A stretch of DNA of 64,000 bases, taken from positions 2,141,743 to 2,205,742 of the forward strand of contig OZ244048.1 in NCBI GenBank assembly GCA_965215265.1, given 5' to 3'. How positions within the stretch are numbered: the first letter of the stretch is position 1; every line of letters starts with the position of its first letter. The position numbers and the translations under genes are program-made. The notes beneath the pieces were generated by a model. The model did no database searches and was not told the DNA's origin. It was given only the letters and a program-made list of their open reading frames with translations. Below are positions 6,669-55,967 of this stretch, one piece after another. Source of the stretch: Candidatus Poribacteria bacterium (GTDB lineage: Bacteria > Poribacteria > WGA-4E > WGA-3G).

Positions 6669-7382
6669 ATGGTCCGGGCTTGTTTAGTTTTTTTCATTCT
6701 ATTAACCGTCTCTTTGGGGATGTGGAACCTTATCGCACAAACCCAAGAAACACATGTTGAAAACGTTGAAAACGGAGTTGTGCGGGGTTACATTTCCGAT
6801 ATAACACGGCAACAATCACCGATTGCCAACGTTCACGTGACACTCACACGGCTTGAACCAGACTTCGAGACGACAACCAACGCGAAGGGCGAATTTGAGC
6901 TCACCAATTTAGCACCCGGACGCTACGTTGTTACTCTGAGTAAAGATGACTACGACCGGGGGATTGTACAACTTGTAACCGTTGTGAATAGGGGAGAGCA
7001 GTATGTCACACTTAAAATGGGCCCAGAGGCGATAGAAAACGTCCCAATTCCGGAAAAGATTCGCACGCCGGTACCAAAAAATGGCGGCACCGTCCGTGGG
7101 CAAATTGTGGATACATCAACCGCCCAAAACCCTATTCCTGACGTGCGTGTCGTCATTGCCAGCCAAGATGGCGAATATGAAGCGACAACAGATGCAAATG
7201 GCGAGTTTGAACGCACTGGTGTCCCCGCAGGACGCTACTTGATTAGTATCTATAGAGAAGGATACGGAGATCGCGAAGGCAAACCCGTAACCGTCGTGAA
7301 TGGCGGCGAGCACTATATTCCACTCAAGATGACTCAAAAATTCTCTTTTTTCCAAAAATTGGGAAAGGTCTTCGGTTTTTAA
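6669..7382 (+). CDS. secreted protein with two tandem carboxypeptidase-regulatory-like (CarboxypepD_reg, transthyretin-like) domains
   Basis: Signal peptide. Two ~80-aa repeats with the pattern G.VRG.I.D....PI..V.V.........T.T.A.GEFE...PG.Y......GY. The second repeat is nucleotide-identical (98%) to the N-terminus of the next gene. Confidence 0.55.
   Translation: MVRACLVFFILLTVSLGMWNLIAQTQETHVENVENGVVRGYISDITRQQSPIANVHVTLTRLEPDFETTTNAKGEFELTNLAPGRYVVTLSKDDYDRGIVQLVTVVNRGEQYVTLKMGPEAIENVPIPEKIRTPVPKNGGTVRGQIVDTSTAQNPIPDVRVVIASQDGEYEATTDANGEFERTGVPAGRYLISIYREGYGDREGKPVTVVNGGEHYIPLKMTQKFSFFQKLGKVFGF
7082..7333 (+). repeat. 252-bp segment 98.4% identical to 7693-7944 (copy 1, inside CDS 6669-7382)
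   Basis: Direct reading comparison gives 4 mismatches over 252 nt at an offset of 611 bp. Confidence 0.9.
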
Positions 7383-7603
7383 CTTTAAATTACAGATAGT
7401 TGGACCTGTCTTGATAGGAGGGGCCACTACAATCTATTCTCCTACAATGGCGTGGGAGAACCTGAATAATCAACCCTGAAAAAAAGCGTAACTTCTTAGT
7501 GTCTCAGGTGTTGATAGATACAAAACTTGTTAGGAATACGAGGGCATACTTGTCCGATTCGAGAACTTTACTAACAAGTTACCTAAAGGAGGAAACAGTC
7601 CGA

Positions 7604-8599
7604 ATGAAACGTTTAAGTTTAATGTTAATGTTAGCTGCCTGTATCGGAATGTCCGCTGGAATCGTCTTTGCACAAGATGACATTGCCAGCAGTGGCGGCA
7701 CCGTCCGTGGGCAAATTGTGGATACATCAACCGCCCAAAACCCTATTCCTGACGTGCGTGTCGTCATTGCCAGCCAAGATGGCGAATACGAAGCGACAAC
7801 AGATGCAAATGGCGAGTTTGAACGCACTGGTGTCCCCGCAGGACGCTACTTGATTAGTATCTATAGAGAAGGATACGGAGATCGCGAAGGCAAACCTGTA
7901 ACCGTCGTGAATGGCGGTGACCACTATATTCCACTCAAGATGACCAAGAAAGACAATATCGTCTCCTTCTTCATGAAGTTCGGTTTCGTCTTCTGGCCCT
8001 TGGCTCTTTGTTCCGTCACAGCACTCACCTTCATTATTGAACGGCTCTTCACGTTCGTCCGAAGCCGTTCACGTATCGGCACCGAACAGTTCATCGCAAA
8101 CATCGCGGATTCTTTGCGGAAAGAGAATATCATGGAAGCCGTTTCAATCTGTGAAGAAGCAGGCGGACCCCTCGCCAACGTGCTTAAAGCAGGGCTCCTG
8201 CGTTACAGCCAAGCCCAGATTGAAGAACGCGACATTACCAAAGAGGAAATTCAGGAAGCGATTGAAGAAGCAAGCCTCCTTGAAATACCCGAATTGGAAA
8301 GAAATCTCCCTGTATTGGGAACAGTTGCAGTGGTTTCGCCCCTATTCGGTCTGCTCGGAACAGTCACTGGTATGATTAGTGCATTTACAACTATTGCACT
8401 TGAAGGTACGGGAGACCCGCAGCAGCTCGCCGGTGGTATCTCACAGGCTCTCCTCACGACTGCTGCAGGCCTAACAGTCGCTATTCCATGCCTGATCTTC
8501 TTCCAACTCTTTGATAGCTGGGTTAACAGGCACATGGTTGAGATTTCTCAGGTCTCCACTGAAATTGTTAACCAATTGGTTGTTGGTGAAGGGTCGTAA
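7604..8599 (+). CDS. exbB: MotA/TolQ/ExbB-family proton channel with an N-terminal signal peptide plus CarboxypepD_reg-like periplasmic domain (unusual fusion)
   Basis: RBS AAAGGAGG 7586-7593. The C-terminal 230 aa are a classic ExbB/TolQ (…LGTVAVVSPLFGLLGTVTGMISAF…AGGISQALLTTAAGLTVAIPCLIFF…). The N-terminal 110 aa are signal plus the GTVRGQIVD…GEFE…PAGRY…GY domain. Confidence 0.8.
   Translation: MKRLSLMLMLAACIGMSAGIVFAQDDIASSGGTVRGQIVDTSTAQNPIPDVRVVIASQDGEYEATTDANGEFERTGVPAGRYLISIYREGYGDREGKPVTVVNGGDHYIPLKMTKKDNIVSFFMKFGFVFWPLALCSVTALTFIIERLFTFVRSRSRIGTEQFIANIADSLRKENIMEAVSICEEAGGPLANVLKAGLLRYSQAQIEERDITKEEIQEAIEEASLLEIPELERNLPVLGTVAVVSPLFGLLGTVTGMISAFTTIALEGTGDPQQLAGGISQALLTTAAGLTVAIPCLIFFQLFDSWVNRHMVEISQVSTEIVNQLVVGEGS
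7693..7944 (+). repeat. 252-bp segment 98.4% identical to 7082-7333 (copy 2, inside the exbB-fusion CDS)
   Basis: See copy 1. Confidence 0.9.
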
Positions 8600-8625: not shown

Positions 8626-8649
8626 GAAACCACTCGCCCTACCCTTAAA
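8626..8649 (+). promoter_or_regulatory. 10-bp stem-loop between exbB and exbD (gggcgagtgg-aaac-ccactcgccc); possible attenuator or processing site
   Basis: Perfect inverted repeat with no U-tract. Confidence 0.35.
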
Positions 8650-35990: not shown

Positions 35991-36419
35991 ATGTCAACAA
36001 CACTTGTACACATTGGTGTCCGAACCACTGATCTGGAAAAAAGCATCCATTTCTGGCGGGATGCGCTCGGCTTAACCGTCTTCTCAACCATGAACGGGTG
36101 TTACGATCTCACGGATGGCTATCACAACTTCAGAGTTTTTCAACACCGTGGACCAGAACGGCCCAAACACGTCGGCGGTATGCTCGACTATCTGCACATC
36201 GGAGTCCGTGTCCCTAATTTGCGCGAAGCCGCAAAACGGTGTGAAGAACTCGGCTTCACAATCACTTGGGAAGGTTTAGACGGGAGTAAACCTTACGACC
36301 CGAATTCCAACCAGCTTCCTTCACAAGCCTTTAAAGTCGAAGACCCCGACGGAATTGTCGTTGATATTACGCAACGAGACGATCAGTGGCCAGGGGTTGA
36401 ACTCCAAAGCCGGCACTAA
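35991..36419 (+). CDS. glyoxalase/bleomycin-resistance (VOC) family protein
   Basis: RBS AAAGGAGG. VOC-like beta-alpha-beta-beta-beta pattern with HIGVRTTDLEKSI…HIGVRV. Confidence 0.5.
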   Translation: MSTTLVHIGVRTTDLEKSIHFWRDALGLTVFSTMNGCYDLTDGYHNFRVFQHRGPERPKHVGGMLDYLHIGVRVPNLREAAKRCEELGFTITWEGLDGSKPYDPNSNQLPSQAFKVEDPDGIVVDITQRDDQWPGVELQSRH

Positions 36420-36441
36420 AAACACGCAATTCGCAGCGCCC

Positions 36442-36570
36442 GTGGTGGCGGGAAAAGGGAATCCCAGTAGGTGGCGAGTAAAAGGTAGTAGTGCGTCACC
36501 TTCAGATGACGCAACACTACCTATCTCGCCACTTTGCTATCCTTCAGAATAAAAAAGAAAACCGGACCCC
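36442..36570 (+). repeat. intergenic repeat family A, copy A1 (REP/MITE-like, modular, internally palindromic)
   Basis: Shares modules ggtggcggg, cccagtaggtggcgagtaaaaggta and acctatctcgccactttgctatccttcagaataaaaaagaaaaccggacccc with A2, and inverted modules with A4. Confidence 0.8.
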
Positions 36571-36613
36571 ATCAGTGGAGTTACTACCTTGAACTCCGCC
36601 TATATCCACGAAA

Positions 36614-37318
36614 TCACTCATCACCTCCACCTAACAGCCCTAACCGGAAGAGATAATAGACTAACGTGAGCAGACTTGTCACTGCCGCAGCGAGATAAGT
36701 TAAGAACGCAGCATTCAGAACCTTACTTGCGTGACGATTTTCTTCTGGCGTGAGCATGCCCGCTTCATCCATCGCAACTTTAGCGCGCCGACTCGCATCC
36801 CATTCAACCGGAAGCGTTATCAGTGAAAATACCACCCCTACTGTGAACAGTGCCACACCCAACAATAGAAACGGTTGAATAAAAAGTCCAACCATAATCA
36901 GGATATAGGAAAACATTGAACTGAAATTAGTCGCTGGCACAAGCGCGGTACGCAGACTGAGCATGGAGTAACCGTGTGCATCCTGCATGGCGTGCCCAGC
37001 TTCATGACAGGCCACTCCTATTGCTGATAGAGACTGGCTTGAATACACATCATCCGATAGACGAAGGGCTTTCTGTGACGGATCATAGTGGTCGCTTAGC
37101 CAGCCACTTGAACGTTCAATTCTCACACCGCTGATCCCGTGTCTATGCAACATCTGTGCTGCTGCTTGCGCACCCGTCATACCGCTCCGAGAACCGACTT
37201 GTGAATATTTTGAGAATGTTGACCTTGTGCGCCATGTTGCATAGAGAGACAGGGCAAACCCGGGAGCAATAATGATAAAATAGAGCGGATCAAAGAAAAA
37301 CATGATATACACCTCCAA
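36614..37318 (-). CDS. membrane-embedded putative neutral zinc metallopeptidase (HExxH)
   Basis: HEAGHAMQDAHGY zinc motif with N- and C-terminal TM helices. ~230 aa. Confidence 0.55.
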   Translation of the reverse strand: MEVYIMFFFDPLYFIIIAPGFALSLYATWRTRSTFSKYSQVGSRSGMTGAQAAAQMLHRHGISGVRIERSSGWLSDHYDPSQKALRLSDDVYSSQSLSAIGVACHEAGHAMQDAHGYSMLSLRTALVPATNFSSMFSYILIMVGLFIQPFLLLGVALFTVGVVFSLITLPVEWDASRRAKVAMDEAGMLTPEENRHASKVLNAAFLTYLAAAVTSLLTLVYYLFRLGLLGGGDE

Positions 37319-37330
37319 TTTTAGATTCCT

Positions 37331-37456
37331 GTGGTGGCAGGGAAAGGTATCCTAGTGGGTGACGAGTAAAAGGTTATCTTCTCTCATGGACAGAGAAAGA
37401 ATACCTATCTCGCCACTTTGCTATCCTTCAGGATAGAAAAAGAAAACCGGACCCCG
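37331..37456 (+). repeat. repeat family A, copy A2, a direct repeat of A1 on the other side of the metallopeptidase gene
   Basis: The last ~60 nt are near-identical to A1. Same orientation. Confidence 0.8.
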
Positions 37457-38012
37457 CAATTTGTCTTTTGTTTGTTAAAAGCGTGTAGATCTAATTAGTT
37501 TAAAAAATTATACATGATATCCTTGAGAAATTCAAATTATTTTTGTAATTTGCCAGAAGTAAGACTAAATGAGTTGAATCTCTCTTGCTTTGTCGGAGTG
37601 AACTTTGTAAGCACTGCTTACATTTTAGACAAACGAAAAAACCGAAGCATAGAAAAACGGATAATAGCGGAAAGGGGTGAGAGCTCATTCTTTCTCCTTG
37701 GTTCTGTGACATTGATGCTTTTCAAGCAACGTTGTCAACCAGTTTGCCGTTTCTCGCCTCAACACGGCAGAGCTATACGGGTGAAAAACTTTGGCAAAGT
37801 CCAGTTCTCGAATCGTGAGAACAACCACATCACTATAAATCCGCAACTCAAGCGAAAATAGACCCGTCCTATTGACACACTAAAAAATGCTTGGAACTTC
37901 ACTTAGAAATATGATACAATGATTCTCAGTCAACACGGAACTACAGTACTCACTTACCCCTTTTTTTTTCTGAGAGTCGTCTGTGTGTGATATTATTAGG
38001 GTTGTGTATGAG

Positions 38013-38175
38013 AAAAGGTGGCAGGAGAGGTATTCTTTATCTCTCCTTCAAGGAGAGATAAGATAACCTTTTATTTATAGATGGCGGGGATAAGGTATTC
38101 TTTGTCTCTCCTGCAAGGAGAGAGGAGTTCGGCGGGTGGGAGCCACCTGCCACCCACTGGGCGGAGCAACCTTTT
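38013..38175 (+). repeat. repeat family A, composite copy A3
   Basis: Contains gtattctttatctctccttcaaggagagataaga (13-bp palindrome) twice in variant form, plus cacctgccacccactggg. Confidence 0.7.
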
Positions 38176-38635
38176 CTGTTTCGACTTCTCTCGTTTTACC
38201 GAAAGCGGCAAACGCGACGCGAGCGCATTGAGGCGACACGTTTGCGAGACACTGATGGCTATCAGCACAGAGAGCAAGTGACGCAACGCCGGTTTTTTGA
38301 TAGCAATAGACTTGAAGATGTCTTGAAAACGGGTTATCATAGATGTTGGATTTACCCGGTTCGGGTATCTCTAACCCACGGCTTTTCTCACACGTTTACA
38401 AACAAAAACCTTTCACCACAAACCTTCAAAAAAAAAGGGTAAATGAGGCAGAAAAATACCTTGTATTCTTCCCGTCTTTGTGATATTATTTAAAAAGAGG
38501 CCTTGTCAACCGTTTTAGGGATATATCCGTTACATAAATTGCATAATTAGAATACAGAGATAATAGTATACTGAAGCTGCCTAACGCACATCTGCTCGTT
38601 TAAATTATATCCCTAATCCAGAAAGGAATAAAACC

Positions 38636-39436
38636 ATGTTCGCCAAAATCAACCGCATGCTCTTAAAATTTTTGACCTTGATGCTCCTCTTCAGTCCTTA
38701 TGGCTGTTATATTGACACCAACGATTCTGATGATAACGAACCGCCCGCCGTGCCGCGCGGGGTTAGAACCATCACAGGCGATGAACAAGTTCACATCGAA
38801 TGGTACCCCAACGCCGAACACGACCTCGCAGGATACAGAATCTGGCGCAGCGTTGATGGCCTCAATTTTGACGAATTACTCACCGAAACCTCCGCCGGAA
38901 CAATACGCTACACCGATACCGGTGTCCGTAACGGTTATACCTACTACTACGCCGTTTCTGCTTTCGACTTTGAAGACAACGAAAGCGGACTCAGTCCCGA
39001 AGACGCATGGGATACACCCCGGCCTGAAGGGCGAAACATTACCCTTAACAATTACCAACTTTCTCCGGACCGAAGCGGCTTTGATTTCTCACAACCCGAA
39101 AAGGGCAGCATTCCATGGGACGCGCCCGAAACAGATGTCTATTTAGGATTCGATACCGATGTTAACGTTACATATCTCTATTCTGATAACGATACGTTGA
39201 TGCAGGACCTCGGATATCACGAACATTTTGACGACGTTGATGTCGTACCTGAAATCGGGTACATAACCCTATTTGTAGAGTTAATTGAAGGACATATTTA
39301 CGCACTCTATACACCTGATGGAAACTTCGCCAAAATTCGAGTCCGACGACTTTCTGAGGATGATCTCGTTTTTGACTGGGCATACCAACTCGAACAGGAT
39401 AATGTACAATTAGCACCCGCACTACAGAAACCTTAA
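38636..39436 (+). CDS. secreted fibronectin type III domain protein
   Basis: Signal peptide. FN3 pattern …IEWYPNAEHDLAGYRIWRS…YTDTGVRNGYTYYYAVSA…. Confidence 0.5.
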   Translation: MFAKINRMLLKFLTLMLLFSPYGCYIDTNDSDDNEPPAVPRGVRTITGDEQVHIEWYPNAEHDLAGYRIWRSVDGLNFDELLTETSAGTIRYTDTGVRNGYTYYYAVSAFDFEDNESGLSPEDAWDTPRPEGRNITLNNYQLSPDRSGFDFSQPEKGSIPWDAPETDVYLGFDTDVNVTYLYSDNDTLMQDLGYHEHFDDVDVVPEIGYITLFVELIEGHIYALYTPDGNFAKIRVRRLSEDDLVFDWAYQLEQDNVQLAPALQKP

Positions 39437-39515
39437 TCGATAGATTAGAAAGTTAAAATTTACTTCATGGTGAGGACGGCGCCTCGCCATGAAGCGACAT
39501 TAAAAAGGAAGAACT

Positions 39516-40148
39516 ATGAAAAAACTCGAACGCGTTTTTTTGCTATCCGTAATACTCCTCACCGTATCTACAGTAGCGCTTGCAGCAACCGCAAATAATG
39601 ACGCTAACGCCCGTATTGACGACAAGAAACCTCAACAGGCACAACCGCTCGTCCCCGGTTATACTACTGATAAACCGCAAAGTGAGTCGACGACGTACCC
39701 GCTCTTTCGGACGCATGCACAGCGGTTTTATCCAGAATTGGACATCCAAAAAGCGACTCGGTTATCAATGTTCATGCCCGGCTTAGGACAAGCGTACGCC
39801 GGCAACTACAGCAAAGCCACCCTTTTTCTTGCATCGGAATTGGGAGCCTTCGCACTCGCAGGCTATAACATCGCTCGCGCACTGCATTACAACGCCCAGG
39901 ACGGTTTCGAAACAGGATTCCAAGATTCGCGAATCGGTGAATTCTTAACCGCCGACCAGGCACGCGTGCGTATGAGGGACCACACCCTCTTTGGGGGGCT
40001 TTTTCTCCTCACCGGCATCGGCATCCATGTATGGAATATCCTCGACGCACCCAAAACAGCAGATGCATATAATAATCGAAGATTTTCCCTGCAAATGCTA
40101 CAAACAGAGAGTGGGATACGTTCAATTATTTTTACGCAACGATTCTAA
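39516..40148 (+). CDS. hypothetical secreted protein
   Basis: Signal peptide MKKLERVFLLSVILLTVSTVALA. RBS AAGGAAG. Family unknown. Confidence 0.4.
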   Translation: MKKLERVFLLSVILLTVSTVALAATANNDANARIDDKKPQQAQPLVPGYTTDKPQSESTTYPLFRTHAQRFYPELDIQKATRLSMFMPGLGQAYAGNYSKATLFLASELGAFALAGYNIARALHYNAQDGFETGFQDSRIGEFLTADQARVRMRDHTLFGGLFLLTGIGIHVWNILDAPKTADAYNNRRFSLQMLQTESGIRSIIFTQRF

Positions 40149-40203
40149 TCGCACTTTTTCTTTACACGTGTAGTCGAAACACGCAGATTGGAGACTGTTA
40201 AAG

Positions 40204-41082
40204 ATGCCTTATCCTAAGCAATTAACACGGATTTTTTACGGCTTAATCGCCGCAAACCTAATTGTGACTATTGGCGCGCTCGCACAGCAAAAAACCGGAA
40301 CACGCGATGATGTTTTGACCAGTCTCGTTCAAACTGAAAACATCTCACCTGCACCCTTTCAGGTAGGCGAAAAATTCACTTACAAAGTCAAAATCCGCAG
40401 ACTACCCGCAGGAAAACGCACCGACCTGGTCGTCAAAAAAACACAATTGAACGGGAAAAACGTCTATCATATCCGATCCGAGGCAAAAACCCATTCTATT
40501 TTTAGACTTTACCACTTCCGCAATCAGCAGGAGACTTTTTTACAACGCAGCACACCGCTAACCGATATGGAAAAAGAGAGCACATCATCCACACAAAAAT
40601 GCAGCCGACTCCCCGGGCTCTCGCCAGTCCGATTCCAGAACCGGATCGAAGACCGGAAATATCGCGCAACCGTCACAGCAAATTTCGGCATAGACGACGC
40701 TATCGAATATCAGAAAACTTCGCGGTTAAATCCAAAATCACCACAAAAACGCGAAACAAAAGTACTCTCCATGCCCAACGGAACACAAGATGAACTCTCT
40801 ATGCTCTATTTTCTACGCAGCAAAAAACTCGCTATTGGGAAAACCTATTTTTTCCCGCTCTTGGCTCAGGGAAAGATCGTCAAGGTTAACATCACCGTCC
40901 AACGTAGAGAATCTCTCAAAACAAAGGTATTAGGGACGGTTAAAACCCTCGTACTGCACGCCTCAAACGGGTCACAACTCTGGTTGACAGACGACACACG
41001 ACGCATACCTGTCAAAATTGAAGCGCAAAGCAAGATTGGAAAAATGGTAGCCAATCTAGAAAAGGTAGAATTTGCAAAATAG
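40204..41082 (+). CDS. hypothetical secreted protein
   Basis: N-terminal signal-like helix. 292 aa. Family unknown. Confidence 0.4.
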   Translation: MPYPKQLTRIFYGLIAANLIVTIGALAQQKTGTRDDVLTSLVQTENISPAPFQVGEKFTYKVKIRRLPAGKRTDLVVKKTQLNGKNVYHIRSEAKTHSIFRLYHFRNQQETFLQRSTPLTDMEKESTSSTQKCSRLPGLSPVRFQNRIEDRKYRATVTANFGIDDAIEYQKTSRLNPKSPQKRETKVLSMPNGTQDELSMLYFLRSKKLAIGKTYFFPLLAQGKIVKVNITVQRRESLKTKVLGTVKTLVLHASNGSQLWLTDDTRRIPVKIEAQSKIGKMVANLEKVEFAK

Positions 41083-41142
41083 ACATCAGCAAAACTAACG
41101 AATAAATTGAAACCCAAAATAGCAACACTAAACCACAAACTA

Positions 41143-41240
41143 GGTATTCTTTATCTCTTCTTTCAGGAGAGATAAGTGGCGAGATAGGTATCTTTCTCTG
41201 TCCATGAGAGAAGATTACCTTTTACCTGCCACCCACTGGG
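41143..41240 (-). repeat. repeat family A, copy A4 (inverted relative to A1)
   Basis: taccttttacctgccacccactggg is the reverse complement of the A1 module cccagtaggtggcgagtaaaaggta. It also carries the ggtattctttatctc…gagagataag palindrome. Confidence 0.75.
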
Positions 41241-41268
41241 TTGAAACAGATCGGATAAGGGAAATTTT

Positions 41269-44200
41269 GTGATAGAACTTTTACGCCATACCCAGAATTA
41301 TCAAAAACTGAGCACTGCCCTCAAACACAGGGAAGAACTTACATGGCTCCGAGGCTTGCCCAATGCATCCACGGCATATCTCTTAGCAGTGCTCATTGAC
41401 GACTTTCCTAATAAATCATTCCTAATTGTACTCCCATCACAACAAGAAGCAGAACAAGTGCACGCGGAAATCCAGACTTATTGGACGTATAGTCTTCCTA
41501 ATTCTGATGCCATGGATACTAGCACGCAAACACAAAAACCTCTGCCTGCACACCCACACATGACACTTTTTCCCGGATGGCAATCACAACTTTTTGATGG
41601 CATCCCGCCATCCAAAAATACGGCTGTCCAGCGGATGCAAACGCTGCAAACGTTGCTGCAAGCACGCGAACGCAGCGTGGTTGTAACGAACGCCCGAACG
41701 TTAACTTACAAACTGCCACCCCGTTCAACATTGGCAACCGCTTTCTGCGAACTTCAACTCGGTGATGAAGCAGAACCAGACGATGTCATTGAAATGCTCC
41801 TCTGCGGCGGTTATCAACAGGTCGAATTGGTAGAGGTCAAAGGCGAATTCGCTTTCCGCGGGGACATCCTCGATGTCTATCCCTCCACTCTTGATACACC
41901 CGTCCGAATCGAATTTTTCGGCGATGAAGTTGAGGCCATCCGCGCCTTTGAACCCATGTCGCAGCGCTCAACTGAACAACTTGATGCCGTTACACTCCCA
42001 CCGATGCGCGAAATTCTCGCACGTCACATCTCTCTCGAACACTGGCACTTGCAAACAGACCAAATCATCCAAGAATATGCAACGCCGCAATTGATACACC
42101 GTATTAATGAACTCACACAACACTTAAAGGAAGCTACTTGCGAGCCGACAATAAGACGCACACACACAACCGACAACTTTACAGCAGCACCCCCGATGTT
42201 CGATTGGATAGAGGCGTTCTTGCCGCTCCTCTATCCCAAAACTGAAGCACTCATCGACTATCTCCCCGATGACACTTGTGTTGTACTGATAGAACCACAC
42301 TGGCAAAAACGTGAAGCAGCCCAAATGCTCGAGCAGATGCACGAACTGTTTCAGAAAAATTTGGCAGAATCAAAACTCATGGTGCCACCAGATAAAATGT
42401 TCGTTCCATTTGAGGAGCTCCAGACGCAATTAAAGCAATATCCGCTCCTCTGTGCATCCTTGGCACCCCCACGCGACATCTCAGCCTCAGAAAAGACACA
42501 GCTACACTTTGATATGAAACCGTTGGGACTGCCACGAGGCAGCTACCAGATGGTTATCGACCACATCAAAACCTGGACAGACGAAGGATATCAGGTTTAT
42601 GTATTCTGTGAAACGCCACAGCAGGCGAAGCGCGTCTCAGAAATTTTAGCCGAACGAGAAGCCGACTCAGAAATCAGCGAACACGCTATCCACGCTAACC
42701 ACACGGACTTCACAGCCAGCAATCCTTATCGTCTTAATCGACTTTTCGTCACAGTCGGAACAATTACGGAAGGCTTCCTTAATGAATCGCTAAACATCGT
42801 TGTCATCTCCGAAGAAGAGATATTCGGCAATCGGCATCAACGGCGAATACGGCCGAAACGACCCAAGGACGGCACACCGGTTCTCAGCCTAATTGACTTG
42901 AAGATAGGAGACCATGTCGTGCATGTCTCGCACGGCATCGCGGTTTATGGAGGCATCCAGCGCTTGGATTTTAACGGAAAATTACAAGATTTCCTAGTCC
43001 TCAAATATAGCAATGACGATGTCCTCTATGTGCCTAATTATCAAGTCGAGCTGGTTCAAAAATATATCAGCAGCAACGATGAAACTTACAAACCGCGGCT
43101 AGACCGACTAGGCGGACCCGCATGGCGCAACCGAAAAAACAGAGTAAAAGCATCAATCGAAAAAATGGCCGATGAACTCCTCGAACTTTACGCCGCACGC
43201 CAAGCCCGAAAAGGTTATAGCTTCCCAGACGAAGTACCCTGGCAGACTGAATTTGAGGCCCTGTTTCCTTATCAAGAAACCGATGATCAGTTCCAAGCAA
43301 TTGAAGATGTTAAAGCCGACATGGAGGCAGAACAGCCCATGGACCGGCTCATCTGTGGCGATGTCGGATACGGTAAAACTGAAGTCGCCTTGCGCGCAGC
43401 CTTTAAAGCCGTCATGGCCGAAAGGCAGGTCGCCGTACTCGTTCCAACAACCATTCTCGCACTCCAGCACTACGACACCTTTGAGAAACGGTTCAAGCCC
43501 TTTCCTGTTCACGTCGAAATGTTGAACCGTTTCCGAACGCCAAAGCAGATAAAGCAGGTCAAAGCAGGACTCGCAGATGGCACGGTCGATATTGTTATCG
43601 GAACGCACAGCCTCCTCGCCAAAACCGTCGAATTTAGCAACCTTGGCCTCTTAATTGTTGACGAAGAACACCGATTCGGCGTGAGACATAAAGAGAAAAT
43701 TAAGAAATTTAAAGAGACAATTGACGTACTCACGTTGACCGCAACACCAATTCCGCGCACTTTGCACATGTCGCTCGTCGGAATCCGAGATTTCAGCGTT
43801 ATCAACACACCACCCGCCAATCGACTGCCGATTCAAACCTACGTGATGCCGTACAACACGGATGTCATCCGAACCGCAATCCTCCAAGAATTAAGTCGCA
43901 GCGGTCAGGTCTTCTTTGTACATAATCGCGTCCGGAGCATCCAGAGCATTGCCAAAAGGTTGGAGCAATTGGTCCCAGAGGCACGCATCGCCGTCGCACA
44001 TGGACAAATGCCCGAACGTGAACTCGAAACGATTATGCTTGAGTTTGTTCGCCACAAGCACGACATACTTGTTTGTACCATGATTATTGAATCCGGACTC
44101 GATATCTCGAACGTAAACACTATCCTGATTAACCGGGCTGATGCACTCGGGTTAGCCCAACTCTATCAACTTCGCGGGCGCGTCGGACGCGCCGAGGCAC

Positions 44201-44901: not shown

Positions 44902-45007
44902 CAAGCTTGTAGAAGCGCAATTCATTCTCTGCCTCTCCACGCTTGCATCTTTAAACCATCGGAGCACTGTGAAAAGCACAGAGTCTTTCTCATAGCTCTC
45001 CATTTCT

Positions 45008-45097
45008 GATTACCACAGCAGCCTAAATCGGCTCTGACGAGATTTGTATAGGTATTATGAAAGCAGCAGCCTTTTATAATGCTTCAGGAGACAAAAA
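45008..45097 (+). repeat. repeat family B, copy B1 (core …ggctc[tc]gacgagatttgta…gcagcagcctt…)
   Basis: ~97% identical to B2 over 90 nt. Lies just 3' of mfd. Confidence 0.8.
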
Positions 45098-45217
45098 TAT
45101 GTAGCCGCGAGCTGATGCTCGCGATTCTTAATCGGAGATTCGCAGGAAAAGGTATTGACCTAAAGGTTAATTAATACCTTACCTGCGAACTTGAACCACA
45201 AAAAAGGAACTATGAAT

Positions 45218-47307: not shown

Positions 47308-47325
47308 CCAATTTTGATTACCACA

Positions 47326-47406
47326 GCAGCCTAAATCGGCTCTGACGAGATTTGTATAGGTATTATGAAAGCAGCAGCCTTTTATAGTACTTCAGGAGAC
47401 AAAAAG
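47326..47406 (+). repeat. repeat family B, copy B2
   Basis: Near-identical to B1. Followed by a 15-bp perfect hairpin. Confidence 0.8.
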
Positions 47407-47408
47407 TT

Positions 47409-47451
47409 GTAAAGTGTCTAAAGTTACTACACAAGACTTTAGACACTTTAC
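47409..47451 (+). terminator. 15-bp perfect-stem hairpin after surA-like gene 2 (gtaaagtgtctaaag-N13-ctttagacactttac)
   Basis: Perfect inverted repeat with no U-tract. Confidence 0.4.
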
Positions 47452-47496
47452 AGCCCTTTAAACTTGAAGGAACCACGTTATGCTATGCCTAATGCG

Positions 47497-48938: not shown

Positions 48939-51900
48939 TTGAACTTTCAAGACGCGCCGGCAAGCGGCGAACGAAAACCTAAATTTTGGGACACTTGCGC
49001 AGCTGCCATAATCGCACTACTCGCAATCCCGTACCTCCACTCTCCGGCAGCACCCGCGCATCCCGCTCTTAACGCACGGCTCATCGCTCAAACACCCCCG
49101 CCGGAACAGACAGAGACACCCACTGAGCCCCAAGAAGAAACAGACGAAAAAGAAAATGCCCCTACATTCAATCCAGAGCAGGAGACACCTGACTCCGGGT
49201 TTGTCATCGGCGACGGAGACGAGATGGTGATGCACGAGAATCTCGTACAAATCCATGGAAACGCTCTCGTCAAATTTGGGGATATCACTTTGCGGGCAGA
49301 CCACGTCTGGGCCGATTTCACCGAAAACGTCAATTTAATCCGCGCATCCGGGAACGTACATCTCATCACCGGCGACGAGGAGACATTCTCTGATGAACTC
49401 GTCTTTAACCTCGAAACCAAAAAGGGCATCGCACGAAACGGCTTTACCTACAGCGACCCCTGGTACTTCGGCGGGAGTGAAATCTTTAAAATTGAAGATA
49501 AGACATCTTACGTCCGAAGTGCTAGCTTGACAACCTGTTCCCTCAAATATCCACACTACTATTTTAGCGTCTCACGCGTTATCATACGAGTCAACGACGA
49601 GCTCATCGCCAAAAATATCATACTCCGCATCGGAGGCTTCCCACTCTTCTATTTTCCAGCCATCCGACGCGATCTGCAGAAGGGAAAAATCGCTAAAATT
49701 ATTGTCAAAGTCGGAACCGATAGCTACCAAGGCCCTTATATCAGTATCATTCAACCTGTCGCACGCAAAAGACGCTACGATGGCGCACTCCTCTACGATA
49801 GAAGTGCACGCAGAGGACACGGCTTCGGGCTTGAAACAAAATATCGATTCAATGATACACAATTCCAAGAAATTTATATCCCTATTCCACCCGACCTAAC
49901 CGCCGCGCAACGCTCAAAATTGGAGGATAAAGCCAAAGAGATACGCGAACGGCTCGAAGGCAAATACAACCGATATTGGCTAAAGCAAATTTTCCTACCT
50001 TATGAAATTACGGATGCTGACTTCAAACGCGCGAAAGAGAACGCTGAAGAACTGCATAATCAACTTGTCCAAGAAAACGCAGATTTCGCACAACTCGCAC
50101 AGCAGCATTCTAGCCACGAAACTCGATACGAAGGGGGCGACTTAGGGTTCATCACATTCGGAGAACTGATTGAGGACACAGAAAAATCAACGCCTGCCTC
50201 TAAAAACACAGATAAAAATACCGAAACACCGCAAACCCAATCCGGATCAGAAGACGCAGCACAAACAGACGACGATACGCCGCAATCCGATGATAAACCA
50301 CCACAAACAGACGACGATGCACCGCAATCCGATGATGAACCACCACAAACAGACGACGATACGCCGCAATCCGATGATGAACCACCACAAACAGACGACG
50401 ATACGCCGCAATCCGGATCAGAAGACGCAGTGCAGCCCATTGGGACACCCAAACTCGACCCGATTTTAGAAACAGCAGCATTTCAACTAGAGGAAGGCCA
50501 AATCAGTCAGGTTTTAAAGACTGAATCCGCTTTTCACATCCTCAAAATCGAACGGGCCCTTGATGTATACGGAGAACGCGAAATACAGGTCCGACGGATT
50601 GATATTAACATTGAACCCAGCGACGAAACACGGCAGAAAATACGCGAAACCGCAAATCAAATTTATCAACGTGCACACGAAGGCGAACCCTTGGAAAAAC
50701 TTGCCGAAGAATTCGACGAAGCCGCTTTATCAGAAATCAACCAAGGCAAAGGACTCCCACTCAATCAAATGGAGTCCGGATGGCAATATTCTGTCAGAAG
50801 GTTAGAGAAGCCCGGCGAAATCATACAACGCCGGCCAGTTTCCGCACCAGAGGGGTTATACATCTTCCAATTAATTAAAAAAGAAGAGACTCCCTCCTTT
50901 GAACAACTCGCTCAAGAATTTGAATTGGAATGGGAAACCTTCCAACAAGAGGTCATGCGTTCAACCGAAGAAGAGAAACAGGAAAACGCAGAAAAAAACC
51001 AAACAGCCGCAGCTGCCGAACCTCTACAAGCTAAAAGTATAGCACCGCAACAAAAGAAAAAAACAGAAGAAAAAAACGGAACACCTACACAACTAGACGA
51101 GCAGCCGGACGCGGAGAGTGAGAACACAACCCAAGAAGAAGATGAAGAAGATGAAGAAGATGAAGCAGCAGCAGCAGAGCAGGGTGTCTATCGAAAACAC
51201 GGATTTCGCGGACAGTGGGAAGATCCCCGCATGGTCGCAGCCGAAGCACGCAGTTTGTACACCGGCGAATTCAGTCGTGTCGTAAAAACAAAAAAAGCGA
51301 TCCGCCTTATTAAGGTCGATCGAAAACGCACTTACCGCGGGGATTTCTACTTCTACGGCAAAGATGCATACTCCTTCGACAGGCAGAACGCAACTCGTAT
51401 CGGCAGAACATGGATATCCCGATGGGGACACACGCAAGCTATCTATACACCCTGGGATAATCGCCAAGAAGGACGCCGCCCTATCAACTTTACCGGACGC
51501 CTCGAATGGCGCGCCCGAAACTACAAAGAAGAACTCCGACTCCCCGGAGAATCCACACTCAAATCGTTTGGACTCCTTAACTACGGCTCCGCATTCACCA
51601 CATGGTCTACTCAAGATGTCGATGAAAACAATAATCTCAAATTCTCAATGGAAACTATCGGAGATTTCGCAGGACGACTCGAAATCCGACATATCTATGA
51701 TTTCACCCAACAAGGCACTACATCTTTACAAAAACTCCCACAACTCTCCTTAAACTTTTCACGGATGCGGTTTAGCCAACTGCCTCTCTTTCGAACCATT
51801 AACTCCGGGTTAGTCTACCTCTCCGAAAAAGCCCAAAGCGACAAACCTTTTCTCTCACTACTCTCTGTACCAACATTAGATAACACCAGCTTCGATCTGG

Positions 51901-53012
51901 ACATGGAATTCGGAAATTTCTTTAGACAAATCTATAAAGGCAAAAACGAGGAAGAGAGAGATGTCTTCCTGCAGACGCTTGACTTCGGTTTTGACCTGCG
52001 CAAACAGGCAACCTTACTCATTACCCCGCTGCGCGAATTGGTAACCAACATCAATCTGAATACAAACTTTATCTGGCACGACCGGGACCAGGACAAAAAC
52101 AGGAACATTATCCGCGGCGTTTATAGTTTCAACGGCTCCGCCACAAATACACTCTTCCGTGTCTACAATATTAGTTTCATCCCACGGGCACGTAAACTAC
52201 GGCACGAGATGCAATCATCACTCCGGTTTGATTACCAACCCCCTGTTGATCGGAACGATAATCTCTATCCCTTCGGCCCCAGCACCTATTTCTACGAACG
52301 GAAAAGGATCGTCTATAACTTCAACACGAACATCGAAATTAAGACACAGCGCAGCCAATCCCCACATCGTATCTTCCATTTTGACACCCGACTCACTGCC
52401 GACTTTACCAAATTCGACCCGCTAAACAGACGCAAATATGAACCGATCGAGAGTGATTTCACTATCATACCGCTCCCCAATCGCAGCCTGAACATGACCG
52501 TCCGACTCACCCACGACCCCAATCCACACCCAGAGGACGGTACCATGTTCAAAGTTGTCGGAATCCGTTCCAACATCCGATACACACGACAGAAGTGGAA
52601 TGTCAGCATCGGAAACTCCTTTAGCAAACGGCACACCGCCATTCGAGCATCACGCTCCATCACCGCCAATGGCAGATACCGATTTAACGAGAACCTCGAT
52701 TTCGATTTCAACCTCATCTTTTATCCGATCGACAGGGACTTCTACTCACAACGCATTAGTATCAATCGGAACTTACACGATTGGAACTTGCGCGTCTCTT
52801 GGAGCCGCATCGGCATTAAACGCGGGCCGCCACCCCATAACAACGTCCGACAAGATTTCACTTTTCAGATTAGCTTAATTCCAGAACCAGCAGTCTCAAT
52901 GGGCATCGGCTACGATGCCACTACCGAAACATGGGGACTCCGTACCTTACCCGCCGGCGCACCTTACAACGCTTTCGGGGTAGGAAATGCACTCGGACGT
53001 TCTTACTTCTAA
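48939..53012 (+). CDS. LptD/OstA-like outer-membrane protein (1357 aa) carrying an embedded parvulin (PpiC) domain split by acidic PQ[ST]DD tandem repeats
   Basis: RBS AGGAGGGGG plus TTG. N-terminal LptA/OstA-type beta-jellyroll (…FGDITLRADHVWADFTENVNLIRASGNVHLITGDEE…). PpiC signature …ADFAQLAQQHS….GGDLGFITFGEL – [repeat insert] – AAFQLEEGQISQVLKTESAFHILKI. Long C-terminal beta-rich region ending …GRSYF-stop. Confidence 0.55.
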   Translation: MNFQDAPASGERKPKFWDTCAAAIIALLAIPYLHSPAAPAHPALNARLIAQTPPPEQTETPTEPQEETDEKENAPTFNPEQETPDSGFVIGDGDEMVMHENLVQIHGNALVKFGDITLRADHVWADFTENVNLIRASGNVHLITGDEETFSDELVFNLETKKGIARNGFTYSDPWYFGGSEIFKIEDKTSYVRSASLTTCSLKYPHYYFSVSRVIIRVNDELIAKNIILRIGGFPLFYFPAIRRDLQKGKIAKIIVKVGTDSYQGPYISIIQPVARKRRYDGALLYDRSARRGHGFGLETKYRFNDTQFQEIYIPIPPDLTAAQRSKLEDKAKEIRERLEGKYNRYWLKQIFLPYEITDADFKRAKENAEELHNQLVQENADFAQLAQQHSSHETRYEGGDLGFITFGELIEDTEKSTPASKNTDKNTETPQTQSGSEDAAQTDDDTPQSDDKPPQTDDDAPQSDDEPPQTDDDTPQSDDEPPQTDDDTPQSGSEDAVQPIGTPKLDPILETAAFQLEEGQISQVLKTESAFHILKIERALDVYGEREIQVRRIDINIEPSDETRQKIRETANQIYQRAHEGEPLEKLAEEFDEAALSEINQGKGLPLNQMESGWQYSVRRLEKPGEIIQRRPVSAPEGLYIFQLIKKEETPSFEQLAQEFELEWETFQQEVMRSTEEEKQENAEKNQTAAAAEPLQAKSIAPQQKKKTEEKNGTPTQLDEQPDAESENTTQEEDEEDEEDEAAAAEQGVYRKHGFRGQWEDPRMVAAEARSLYTGEFSRVVKTKKAIRLIKVDRKRTYRGDFYFYGKDAYSFDRQNATRIGRTWISRWGHTQAIYTPWDNRQEGRRPINFTGRLEWRARNYKEELRLPGESTLKSFGLLNYGSAFTTWSTQDVDENNNLKFSMETIGDFAGRLEIRHIYDFTQQGTTSLQKLPQLSLNFSRMRFSQLPLFRTINSGLVYLSEKAQSDKPFLSLLSVPTLDNTSFDLDMEFGNFFRQIYKGKNEEERDVFLQTLDFGFDLRKQATLLITPLRELVTNINLNTNFIWHDRDQDKNRNIIRGVYSFNGSATNTLFRVYNISFIPRARKLRHEMQSSLRFDYQPPVDRNDNLYPFGPSTYFYERKRIVYNFNTNIEIKTQRSQSPHRIFHFDTRLTADFTKFDPLNRRKYEPIESDFTIIPLPNRSLNMTVRLTHDPNPHPEDGTMFKVVGIRSNIRYTRQKWNVSIGNSFSKRHTAIRASRSITANGRYRFNENLDFDFNLIFYPIDRDFYSQRISINRNLHDWNLRVSWSRIGIKRGPPPHNNVRQDFTFQISLIPEPAVSMGIGYDATTETWGLRTLPAGAPYNAFGVGNALGRSYF
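50268..50417 (+). repeat. in-frame 42-bp tandem repeat x ~3.5 (DDD[AT]PQSDD[EK]PPQT) inside the LptD-like CDS
   Basis: Units at 50268, 50310, 50352 and a partial one at 50394. It is flanked by a longer direct repeat (…caatccggatcagaagacgcag…). A 9-bp x3 EED repeat lies at ~51131. Confidence 0.85.
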
Positions 53013-53096
53013 CATTATTAAATTGAAGACTCATAACCTAGAATGGCTCCCACTGGGAGCCTACTTAGGCATAGTCTTTTGAAGTCAAAGCATCAG

Positions 53097-53161
53097 AAGG
53101 CTCCGACGAGATTTGTAAAGGGTTTAACATTGCAGCAGCCTTGTATCGGGCTCCTGTAGAC
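53097..53161 (+). repeat. repeat family B, copy B3 (variant), 3' of the LptD-like gene
   Basis: gaaggctccgacgagatttgtaaagggtttaacattgcagcagccttgtatcgggctcctgtagac. Preceded by the small hairpin ggctccc-act-gggagcc at 53045-53061. Confidence 0.7.
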
Positions 53162-53820
53162 GAAAAGGCGATTTCAAGCAACTGAGCGCGGTTTTATATG
53201 AATGGAGAATCTACTACAGCACTGGATACCGGGTTTATTTCGGCGTTTTCCGCACCACAGCTATTCTGCTTTGTGGCGGAACTAAACGCACACAACAGCA
53301 AGACATTGCCAGAACACAAAACTATTGGAACGACTTCTTAGTACACAGGAAGGAACAAGGACAACAAATACCGAAACGAGGCTTCAGAGGCGCACATTGC
53401 CTTTCAATCCCCCTTTTCTTAAAGAACTTGCTGAACTGGGGTTTGCCAAAGTTTATCTGGAAGCTGCATGAGCCGATTTTGACAAGGATAGGAACATTGA
53501 AAGACTATTGCACGCCATAAAAGAGGTAGCAGAAGCACAAAGCGGAATTGGCATCCTTGTTGCATGGACACAACTCAGTTATCAGAATCTTGCTTATCTT
53601 CTTCGTGTCAAACATCCATTGCAATTGGATAAAACGTTAGATTCAAAAACAGAAACCGCTCATCAACCTAACCGTAGCGTGGACAGAGACGCTAATATCA
53701 TTGTCATCGACTTCGTGAACGGAAAAACGGAGAAAATCGGAACAGATTGAAACACTGAAACCGAAGCTGTTTTTTTATGAAACGAAGACACACCGACTGA
53801 CTCAGGGGCATTCCGATGCC

Positions 53821-54546: not shown

Positions 54547-54682
54547 TATAAACTTATATCCATGAACTATAGTAGATTTAGTACGCTATCTTTATCCGTA
54601 TGCCATTTCAGGATGTTTACCAAGAACACGAAGCAAACGTTCATCTGCACCTTCCAAGACATAGTCAGGCATACGTTTGTTT

Positions 54683-54807
54683 GTCTACAGGAGCCCCATA
54701 CAAGGCTGCTGCAATGTTAAACCCTTTCCAAAACTCGCTCTTTAGTATATTTCAGCACAACAACGATGGCTGTAATGAACAACGAAAGCACAAATCTCGT
54801 CGGAGCC
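54683..54807 (-). repeat. repeat family B, copy B5 (inverted, with a ~62-nt internal insertion)
   Basis: The reverse complement reads ggctccgacgagatttgtg-[insert]-gggtttaacattgcagcagccttgtatggggctcctgtagac. Confidence 0.7.
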
Positions 54808-54846
54808 ATTTTAGGTTTTGATTTTAAAAGACTATACCTAGTTAAC

Positions 54847-54935
54847 CTCCGACGAGATTTACATCGGATTTAACAATACATAACCCTTGATGGTACCAAG
54901 ATATACAAAAAGATGGTACGGAGATATACGAAAAG
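54847..54935 (+). repeat. element F2 (ctccgacgagatttaca…gatggtaccaagatatacaaaaagatggtacggagatatacg, internally duplicated)
   Basis: Matches F1 modules. Confidence 0.7.
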
Positions 54936-55110
54936 AAGTGTTTGTTCTTTTGACATATTTCTAATACCTAAAAAAGCGTGTCTCCTGTTAAGATTCTTAA
55001 AAGTTTTCCGTTAATAACTCATGTCCTATTAGTATTCTGTGATAACTAGGGAAAGTCGTTCAGGCTGTTTACCCAATTCAGAGCCGTTTATGTTTAGATT
55101 CATAGCATAA

Positions 55111-55176
55111 GAAGGCTCCGGCGAGATTTATACAGGTTTTAGCATAGCAGCAGCCTTGTTGCGGGCTCCTGTAGAC
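55111..55176 (+). repeat. repeat family B, copy B4
   Basis: gaaggctccggcgagatttatacaggttttagcatagcagcagccttgttgcgggctcctgtagac. Confidence 0.7.
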
Positions 55177-55967
55177 AAATGAACCAAATCGATGTGGGCA
55201 GATGCAATGATATCGGCACCCATTCGCCCTGAAACTGCCTGTCGTTGGCAGCATTGATGACTGTGCAATCGGTGAATGTCACTCGCGCCCCCTTCAATGA
55301 CTTTTCCTGAATCTTGATACCGTAACCGACGGTATTCTCAACTGTGCAGTTATTAAATTCAATATGCCCCCTGGTCCATCGTCTCGAATCTTTGAAACGC
55401 GGATACCCGTTCCGTGTTGACTGCTGATGTAGCAATTTTCAAAGTGCATCGTCACAGCCTCGGATTCACCGGTGGTGTGCGCCAAGAACACTTCGATACC
55501 GTCTCCGCTGTTATCGACGTTGACGTTCTTGCAACCGCCTCTTCCAACGTCATCCGCCACTCGCCCTTTGGATACTGTCCATACCAGCGATGCCAGCCAA
55601 ATTGTTCGAGTACGAGCCCTGTGATATAGTCCTGTTTCCACATCCTGAAAGTCGCGCCGTAGCCACGGATGGTGAGATTCTCCACATTTTGTGCTGTTAA
55701 CATGGAGTCCCCTTTTCCCCGATATTCCCCGCGTTTTGCGGTAACGACTGTGCCGGGTTCAAAAAGCAATTCTTGATTCCCGGCAAGCCGAATTGGCTGA
55801 ATTATCCAATCGGTGTGCATATTCGGCACAAACACGCGTTTCGCGCCGGAGTCAATTGCTGCCTGCAGCGTCGTTGTCGCATCTTCAGGATCAAAACCCC
55901 ACCACGCAGCATTGGCAAAAGTCTTTTCTCCAGAACGAATCTCTTCAATCGCTTCAAGATTTTTCAT
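55139..55967 (-). pseudogene. frameshifted right-handed beta-helix (pectate-lyase-fold) protein gene
   Basis: Three successive minus-strand ORFs in three different frames (55967-55452, 55641-55294, 55435-55139) together read as one beta-helix protein (…AAWWGFDPEDATTTLQAAIDSGAKRVFVP…, …NCYISSQHGTGIRV…, …NCTVENTVGYGIKIQ…FTDCTVINAA…). The last ORF runs into repeat B4. Confidence 0.55.

Follow-up and report, generated by a model that had tools for sequence, protein, structure and literature searches.

A probable REP/REPIN-like family of palindromic intergenic repeats in a sponge-associated Candidatus Poribacteria

The BOX elements of Streptococcus pneumoniae and the ERIC (or IRU) elements of enterobacteria are non-coding intergenic repeats of ~100-200 nucleotides (nt), modular in build or formed by a long imperfect palindrome, which are co-transcribed with their neighbours and whose internal module number varies between copies and strains. 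The order of the BOX modules is fixed as A-B(n)-C, ERIC is a single 127-bp palindrome, and both are present in tens to hundreds of dispersed copies. The repetitive extragenic palindromes (REPs) of the GTAG type carry a tetranucleotide tag next to the stem, with a GTGG variant in Opitutus terrae, a species of the Planctomycetes-Verrucomicrobia-Chlamydiae (PVC) group (Di Nocera et al. 2013, PMC3733652). These REPs include sub-families with compensated stems and contain frequent G-T pairs, suggesting that they are transcribed; they are often clustered, and their family sizes range from <20 to thousands (PMC3733652). The repeat analyzed here, termed family A, is a non-coding, hairpin-forming element of ~65-160 bases that is present in four (perhaps five) copies between housekeeping genes in a 64-kb stretch (the window) of the 4.83-Mb chromosome of a sponge-associated Candidatus Poribacteria. 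It is probably, with a likelihood of roughly 0.6, a new species-specific member of the REP/REPIN-like palindromic intergenic repeats.

All family A copies are intergenic or lie in untranslated regions (UTRs). They are given here with their scores (in bits) under a covariance model built from six family A units:

36442-36570, minus strand: copy A1, between the convergent glyoxalase (plus) and peptidase (minus) genes; fold of -60.5 kcal/mol, z = -5.6; 75 bits
37331-37456, minus strand: copy A2, inserted in the leader (5' UTR) of the peptidase mRNA, downstream of the conserved promoter and ahead of the ribosome-binding site; 80 bits
38013-38175, plus strand: copy A3, a composite of two tandem units (~38016-38091 and ~38078-38164); 69.5 and 31.8 bits
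41143-41240, plus strand: copy A4, between the DUF3108 gene and mfd, its end 28 nt ahead of the mfd start codon; 78 bits
45131-45192, minus strand: weak match that may be a fifth, diverged unit, TTCGCAGG-AAAAGGTATT...AATACCTTACCTGCGAA, immediately ahead of a PPIase-family gene; 15.2 bits, E = 0.027 (whole window)

The original prediction, which came from inspection of the sequence, had described the four copies A1 to A4 in both orientations; sequence comparison bears this out, and the modules and the palindrome that it quoted are present in the window. A1 and A2 are direct repeats (79% identity over 133 nt) that lie 885 nt apart, share an identical run of 29 nt and flank, as had been noticed, a gene for a HEAGH metallopeptidase, which proves to be a Zn_peptidase_2 protein (PF04298). 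A2 and A4 are inverted relative to each other (84% identity over 99 nt, 90% over a 50-nt core), and A3 has the orientation of A4 and contains, twice in tandem, a 35-nt hairpin module (AGGTATTCTTTnTCTCTCC..GGAGAGA) that is also found in A4. This sharing of motifs goes far beyond chance: the 15-mer TACCTATCTCGCCAC occurs three times exactly and, at up to three mismatches, gives eight matches versus ~1 expected, a number reached in none of 100 shuffles, and a 24-mer arm gives two matches versus 0 expected. The covariance model regains the known copies at 69-80 bits (31.8 bits for the second A3 unit) and adds only the weak unit at 45131-45192, which is also present in a sister strain (ENA ERZ21848999 NODE_51, a 99-kb contig whose overlapping locus of 20.7 kb was compared and is 99.0-99.4% identical to the window). 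Neither this model nor the motif searches found a further strong copy in the whole 64-kb window.

Read on the mRNA-sense strand of the adjacent gene (minus for A1 and A2, plus for A3 and A4), the unit is a compound hairpin of 57-63 nt with a nested layout, in which an outer 8-bp stem leads to an AGGTA/TACC stem and this to a variable apical hairpin. The outer stem is either GTGGCGAG/CTCGCCAC or the compensated GTGGCAGG/CCTGCCAC, and the two versions compensate each other (GCGAG/CUCGC in A1 and A2, GCAGG/CCUGC in A3), that of A4 being a chimera (GTGGCGAG / CCTGCCAC). The AGGUA/UACC stem is set off from the outer one by an asymmetric internal loop (AU / UUUA) that is conserved. On the opposite strand, the outer stem is immediately adjoined by a tetranucleotide that reads GTAG in A1 and GTGG in A2, A3 and A4 (ATGG in the A3 of the sister strain), four copies being too few for a consensus. 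In A1 (minus strand) a GGGGTCCGGTTTTC(T)n leader and a small hairpin come before the compound hairpin, GTGGCGAG-AT-AGGTA-[GTGTTGCGTCA..TGACGCACTAC]-TACC-TTTTA-CTCGCCAC, which is followed by CTAC (GTAG on the plus strand) and then by a second, orphan 3' arm. A2 has the same layout, but its apical hairpin is TCTTTCTCT..AGAGAAGA; that of A1 bears no sequence relation to the apical hairpins of A2 and A4, yet it still is a hairpin. Besides the compound hairpin and the second orphan 3' arm, A1 and A2 have a small hairpin, CUAUCC-UGAA-GGAUAG, and on the 5' side a GGGGUCCGGUUUUC(U)n leader; in A4 their place is taken by a UUAUCUCUUC..GGAGAGAUAA hairpin, the accessory hairpin (TTATCTCTTC..GGAGAGATAA) that stands before the compound one, and in A3 two tandem units are enclosed by an outer GGTGGCAGG...CCTGCCACC stem.

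RNA folding, a check suggested together with the original prediction, places the hairpins of the four copies well below shuffled controls (z = -3.2 to -5.6). Across the six units 86% of the cells are paired and 5 of 19 pairs are changed on both sides, which was reached by only 2-5 of 500 column shuffles; compensatory changes therefore keep the pairing between the copies, which are paralogues and not independent samples. The two strands are not equivalent: there are 21 G.U versus 3 A.C cells, and 86% versus 69% of cells are paired, the structure having been derived on the favoured strand, and the mRNA-sense strand (of A2, A3 and A4) folds 5-9 kcal/mol better in four out of four copies, again paralogous ones. 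The ends of A1, A2 and A4 match at only 5-7 of 25 positions, so they do not form terminal inverted repeats, and no direct repeat of at least 5 nt that could be a target-site duplication is found at any boundary within +/-8 nt. No Rfam 15 family matches at its gathering score in the whole window, and a permissive search of 36300-41400 gives chance-level matches only (best E = 0.089, far below gathering scores).

The window is placed in Candidatus Poribacteria by Mfd-anchored loci, the nearest species-representative genome being OY730443.1 (Mfd identity 76%), and the loci that carry A1, A2 and A4 can be compared with those of related species. For the first two the relevant features are the following:

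36614-37303, minus strand: Zn_peptidase_2 (YugP-like, HEAGH) gene, with A1 and A2 on its two sides; 229 aa; PF04298, E = 1.6e-82
37507-37535, minus strand: peptidase promoter of the sigma-70 type, TTGAAT-17-TATAAT, the same in related species

Since the promoter is at 37507-37535, A2 lies inside the transcribed peptidase leader. In four other Poribacteria lineages, with peptidases 90-92% identical, this leader measures ~65-75 nt versus ~200 nt in the window, and when the window is aligned with three related species, A2 stands out as ~130 nt of extra sequence, inserted flush between promoter and ribosome-binding site. In the relatives the spacer that separates the peptidase and glyoxalase genes lacks A1 and has a length of 98-136 nt, versus 194 nt in the window. 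The operon that runs from the FN3-like gene to mfd is syntenic in 18 of the 18 Poribacteria loci compared, and its DUF3108-mfd spacer has 78 nt, without A4, in the closest available species versus 186 nt in the window. Because the relatives, at about species-to-genus distance, keep these genes and short spacers without the elements, A1, A2 and A4 are clean lineage-specific insertions of 100-130 nt, and the insertions, at three or more intergenic or UTR sites, postdate the split from the related species (peptidase ~90%, Mfd 76% identical). All four copies are also found in the sister strain, in which A3 consists of a single unit (two in the window) and is 65 nt shorter; this indel lies exactly between direct repeats (AGGTATTCTTT).

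Beyond this species, the covariance model gave no match in 22 other Poribacteria loci, 447 kb in all, or in three additional ones, and BLAST found no copy in the other Poribacteria loci compared. A blastn search with A2 against plasmid and phage collections gave no match, no close relative of the locus came up when JGI metagenomes were searched with proteins as anchors, and a literature search on REP-type or MITE (miniature inverted-repeat transposable element) repeats in Poribacteria found nothing relevant. The public collections scanned for family A hold no genome of the source species, and the negative scans thus show only that the family is not common to other sequenced Poribacteria. The ends of Logan contigs do not fall at the repeats and are, therefore, uninformative on copy number.

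The copies thus inserted cleanly, as segments of 100-130 nt with neither target-site duplications nor terminal inverted repeats, after the split from the related species. If family A is indeed REP/REPIN-like, they may have spread as single-stranded hairpins by means of a REP-associated tyrosine transposase (RAYT, of the IS200/IS605 type), as is thought for REPs, or by short-range copying, and the location of all known copies within 9 kb would follow from such a mode of spread. Whole modules are still gained or lost by recombination between internal direct repeats, as the 65-nt module that differs between 99%-identical strains shows. The elements would be co-transcribed with their neighbours (A2 in the peptidase leader, A4 ahead of mfd, A1 in a 3' region) and would fold in the RNA, in which they may be at most incidental stabilisers or terminators and not a conserved regulator.

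The features listed above for GTAG-type REPs would all fit family A; its nested 57-63-nt hairpin and its accessory modules do not fit a classic REP, and this is one of several points that weigh against the assignment. The hairpin is longer and more complex than the classic REP of 20-40 bp, and three of the four tags are GTGG, not GTAG. Only four to five copies are known, all within 9 kb, the other 55 kb of the window being free of them, and the fifth unit has an orientation relative to transcription opposite to that of A2-A4. The exact core pattern GTGGCGAGATAGGTA-N15-45-ACCTTTTA has 0 occurrences in 185,579 GTDB species-representative genomes, the JGI metagenomes and IMG/VR, and a chimeric protein made from stop-free six-frame translations of the four copies matched nothing at E <= 1 among 5.8 billion proteins; few and clustered copies, together with these negative public scans, leave a dispersed high-copy family unproven. 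Finally, no RAYT, other transposase or integrase was found among the Pfam-scanned open reading frames (ORFs) of the window, a scan made without some ORFs (~9.8-14.4, 19-24.6 and 48.9-53 kb), nor among the annotations of the sister-strain locus.

Among the other explanations, the one that deserves most attention is local duplication only, in which one hairpin-bearing segment was copied within its 9-kb neighbourhood by slippage, template switching or ectopic gene conversion, with no mobile family and no copies elsewhere in the genome. It is possible, though rather unlikely. All copies do lie at 36.4-45.2 kb of the 64-kb window, the shuffling of modules and the 65-nt indel indicate that recombination between internal repeats occurs, and an unrelated second repeat family (45.0-55.2 kb) is also locally clustered; the uniformly negative public scans agree with it too, although the sets scanned, lacking the source species, are blind to it. 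Four clean insertions at separate intergenic sites, in both orientations and with intact conserved genes between them, are, however, hard to obtain by slippage, and clustering is known in REP families (PMC3733652). More doubtful is a functional cis-acting RNA (leader, attenuator or stabiliser) that would co-regulate the peptidase gene, the FN3-like/DUF5683/DUF3108 operon and mfd, with the duplicated 3' arms of A1 and A2 providing alternative pairings. A2, A3 and A4 have the same orientation toward the downstream gene, with A2 and A4 ending 24-28 nt before the start codon, but the copies are not independent and their shared orientation is therefore weak evidence. The G.U asymmetry favours the mRNA-sense strand, the second 3' arm of A1 and A2 could pair alternatively and a predicted promoter reads into A3; against this, A1 is located 3', the fifth copy points the other way, strains differ in the number of modules and no Rfam family matches. 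Moreover, the element is missing from the same leaders and spacers in every other Poribacteria species examined, while genes and promoters are conserved, and on this absence in all relatives examined a conserved riboswitch or leader is rejected. It is still harder to credit that the elements are an undescribed transcribed, strand-specific structured RNA module, with a preference for inserting just ahead of ribosome-binding sites (A2, A4 and possibly the fifth unit, A5), tuning the expression of neighbours through its 3' arms and hopping over short range with no terminal inverted repeats, target-site duplications or nearby transposase; if true, this would make them mobile cis-regulators of a new class, from an uncultivated phylum, and not a decaying REP family.

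The original prediction went in another direction, taking the peptidase gene as a cassette that recombination can excise or invert. A1 and A2 would then be recombination sites (attC-like or substrates of homologous recombination), a reading that is very improbable. In its favour, A1 and A2 are direct repeats that are separated by 885 nt and share a run of 29 identical nt, and A2 is inverted relative to A3 and A4, but synteny contradicts the cassette. Homologues of the peptidase, 79-92% identical, are found in over 100 genomes and metagenome contigs of Poribacteria, and in repeat-free relatives the gene has the same glyoxalase, SCP2 and MGMT neighbours and the same promoter; both available strains hold it in the same arrangement. 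By these comparisons the peptidase gene is a core gene, conserved and syntenic, that does not belong to the element, which leaves the excisable cassette unsupported. No integrase or recombinase occurs among the annotated or scanned genes nearby, and no attC cores (RYYYAAC/GTTRRRY) are seen in the element sequences as read, no dedicated motif search having been run; an integron/attC cassette is ruled out by the synteny, the promoter of the peptidase and the lack of an integrase in the annotated neighbourhood. The bracketing by A1 and A2 is the result of two independent insertions into short intergenic regions beside a 0.7-kb gene. Direct repeats of this kind could in principle allow rare RecA-mediated deletion, although nothing points to that role.

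The genes around the family A elements are ordinary: a PhyH dioxygenase and the glyoxalase on the plus strand, Zn_peptidase_2/YugP on the minus strand and, beside them on the plus strand, the conserved operon of an FN3-like lipoprotein, DUF5683, DUF3108 and mfd; the remaining window ORFs scanned are housekeeping genes. A3 is in a 1.2-kb spacer (37457-38635) that had been called AT-rich, and its G+C content is indeed 40.5% versus 47% for the window. Both strands of this spacer contain promoter-like sites, and it includes an ORF of 115 aa (37514-37861) that is uncalled and without Pfam match. One of the promoter-like sites would transcribe into A3:

37891-37920, plus strand: promoter-like site TTGGAA-18-TACAAT with an extended -10 TG (prediction only)

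In the sister strain the -10 of this predicted promoter is TATAAT. Only the last ~110 nt of the spacer (promoter region) are shared with the closest species, and synteny breaks at the boundary upstream of the FN3-like/DUF5683/DUF3108/mfd operon, where every Poribacteria species compared has other genes, which makes a reciprocal-junction test of rearrangement uninformative.

Other Poribacteria have their own, unrelated palindromic repeats in the DUF3108-mfd, post-mfd and peptidase-glyoxalase spacers, many of them GTAG-headed, REPIN-like long hairpins. Palindromic repeats of other species are found in the loci L003 (6402-6464/13686-13748 and 9607-9780/17333-17482), L008 (421-503/9713-9901/17565-17680), L010 (6874-6936/13694-13756) and L035 (8066-8135/15688-15755), and also in L011 and L004. 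There are, in addition, isolated short intergenic palindromes headed by GTAG, such as GTAGGGCGAGTGG-TTT-CCACTCGCCC and GTAGCCGCGAGC-TGAT-GCTCGCGA, at positions 8642 (minus), 45101 (plus) and 53064 (minus) of the window, and at 1020-1065 of L086 and 5305-5350 of L091. One of them lies in the peptidase-glyoxalase spacer of related species, in the place of A1, and the apical hairpin of A1 (GTAGTGCGTCA..TGACGCAAC) is of the same type. In L084, a locus of a related genome, two adjacent called ORFs (6808-7341 and 7538-8095) start with the same 18 residues (MISPFVRATARVRWTILK), one of them repeating the peptide SPFVRATARVRW internally, and they look like a translated DNA repeat, not like real genes.

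The second repeat family of the window (family B), unrelated to family A, is also intergenic, with a length of ~100-180 nt and five copies within 10 kb:

45000-45103: family B copy
47308-47411: family B copy
53069-53172: family B copy
54672-54850: family B copy, inverted
55084-55187: family B copy

Its best two copies are 94% identical and are located upstream of paralogues of the PPIase/SurA family, and it is present in the sister strain and in no other Poribacteria locus examined. Local clustering, as seen in families A and B, may be general in this genome. Right after the second family B copy there is a near-perfect 24-bp inverted repeat at 47401-47459 (AAAAAGTTGTAAAGTGTCTAAAGT / ACTTTAGACACTTTACAGC), with a 20-bp hairpin. 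Repeats are also found within genes: in-frame 21/42-nt tandem repeats at 50238-50457, in a 1357-aa ORF (48939-53012), and a 259-nt segment, at 7082-7340 and 7693-7951, that is shared with 97-98% identity by two adjacent CarboxypepD_reg-domain genes, the second of which is fused to MotA/ExbB. The latter suggests recent gene conversion or duplication in a TonB-system cluster.

Family A and the repeats of the other species show that Candidatus Poribacteria genomes carry species-specific, fast-turning palindromic repeat families, with different families in the same intergenic regions and a module number that varies between 99%-identical strains. This helps in typing strains, in accounting for breaks in assemblies and in avoiding false "cassette" or small-RNA calls in uncultivated sponge symbionts; its significance beyond annotation is little. 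The strong G.U asymmetry between the strands and the location in a conserved mRNA leader make A2 a natural example well suited to testing how a REP-like insertion affects expression.

Going back to the described systems, family A, with its modular build and variable module number, would be more like BOX and ERIC than like a classic REP, and it would share with them the co-transcription with neighbours and the lack of coding capacity; it is not known to resemble them in sequence and belongs to a different phylum. MITEs, such as Correia/NEMIS of Neisseria, are likewise small and non-autonomous; they insert into UTRs and between genes, fold into hairpins in the RNA and can change how neighbouring genes are expressed. 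Family A has neither terminal inverted repeats nor target-site duplications, and the MITE reading is rejected on this lack. Of the REP/MITE-like modular family of the original prediction, only the REP part is supported, and this in kind, the copies being extragenic, palindromic, modular and lineage-specific, with GTAG/GTGG by the stem. Integron attC sites are imperfect palindromes of 60-140 nt that flank a gene and, as in family A, structure is kept more than sequence; they differ in their cores, not seen in the family A sequences as read, and in the integrase, not present in the annotated neighbourhood. Unlike an integron cassette, the flanked peptidase is a syntenic core gene with its own promoter, and the elements are found also in leaders and in both orientations. 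Compared with the GTAG REPs and REPINs (PMC3733652; Bertels and Rainey 2011, PMC3116915), family A has a nested, compound hairpin of 57-63 nt plus accessory modules instead of a 20-40 bp stem-loop, is not made of two inverted REPs with a spacer, as a strict REPIN is, and has only four to five known copies, with no RAYT gene seen in the accessible sequence. It resembles them, on the other hand, in being formed by extragenic imperfect palindromes with a putative tag, GTAG or GTGG, next to the stem, and in its compensated stem variants, its G-T pairs on one strand, its clustering, its species specificity, its lack of terminal inverted repeats and target-site duplications and its REPIN-like hairpin length.

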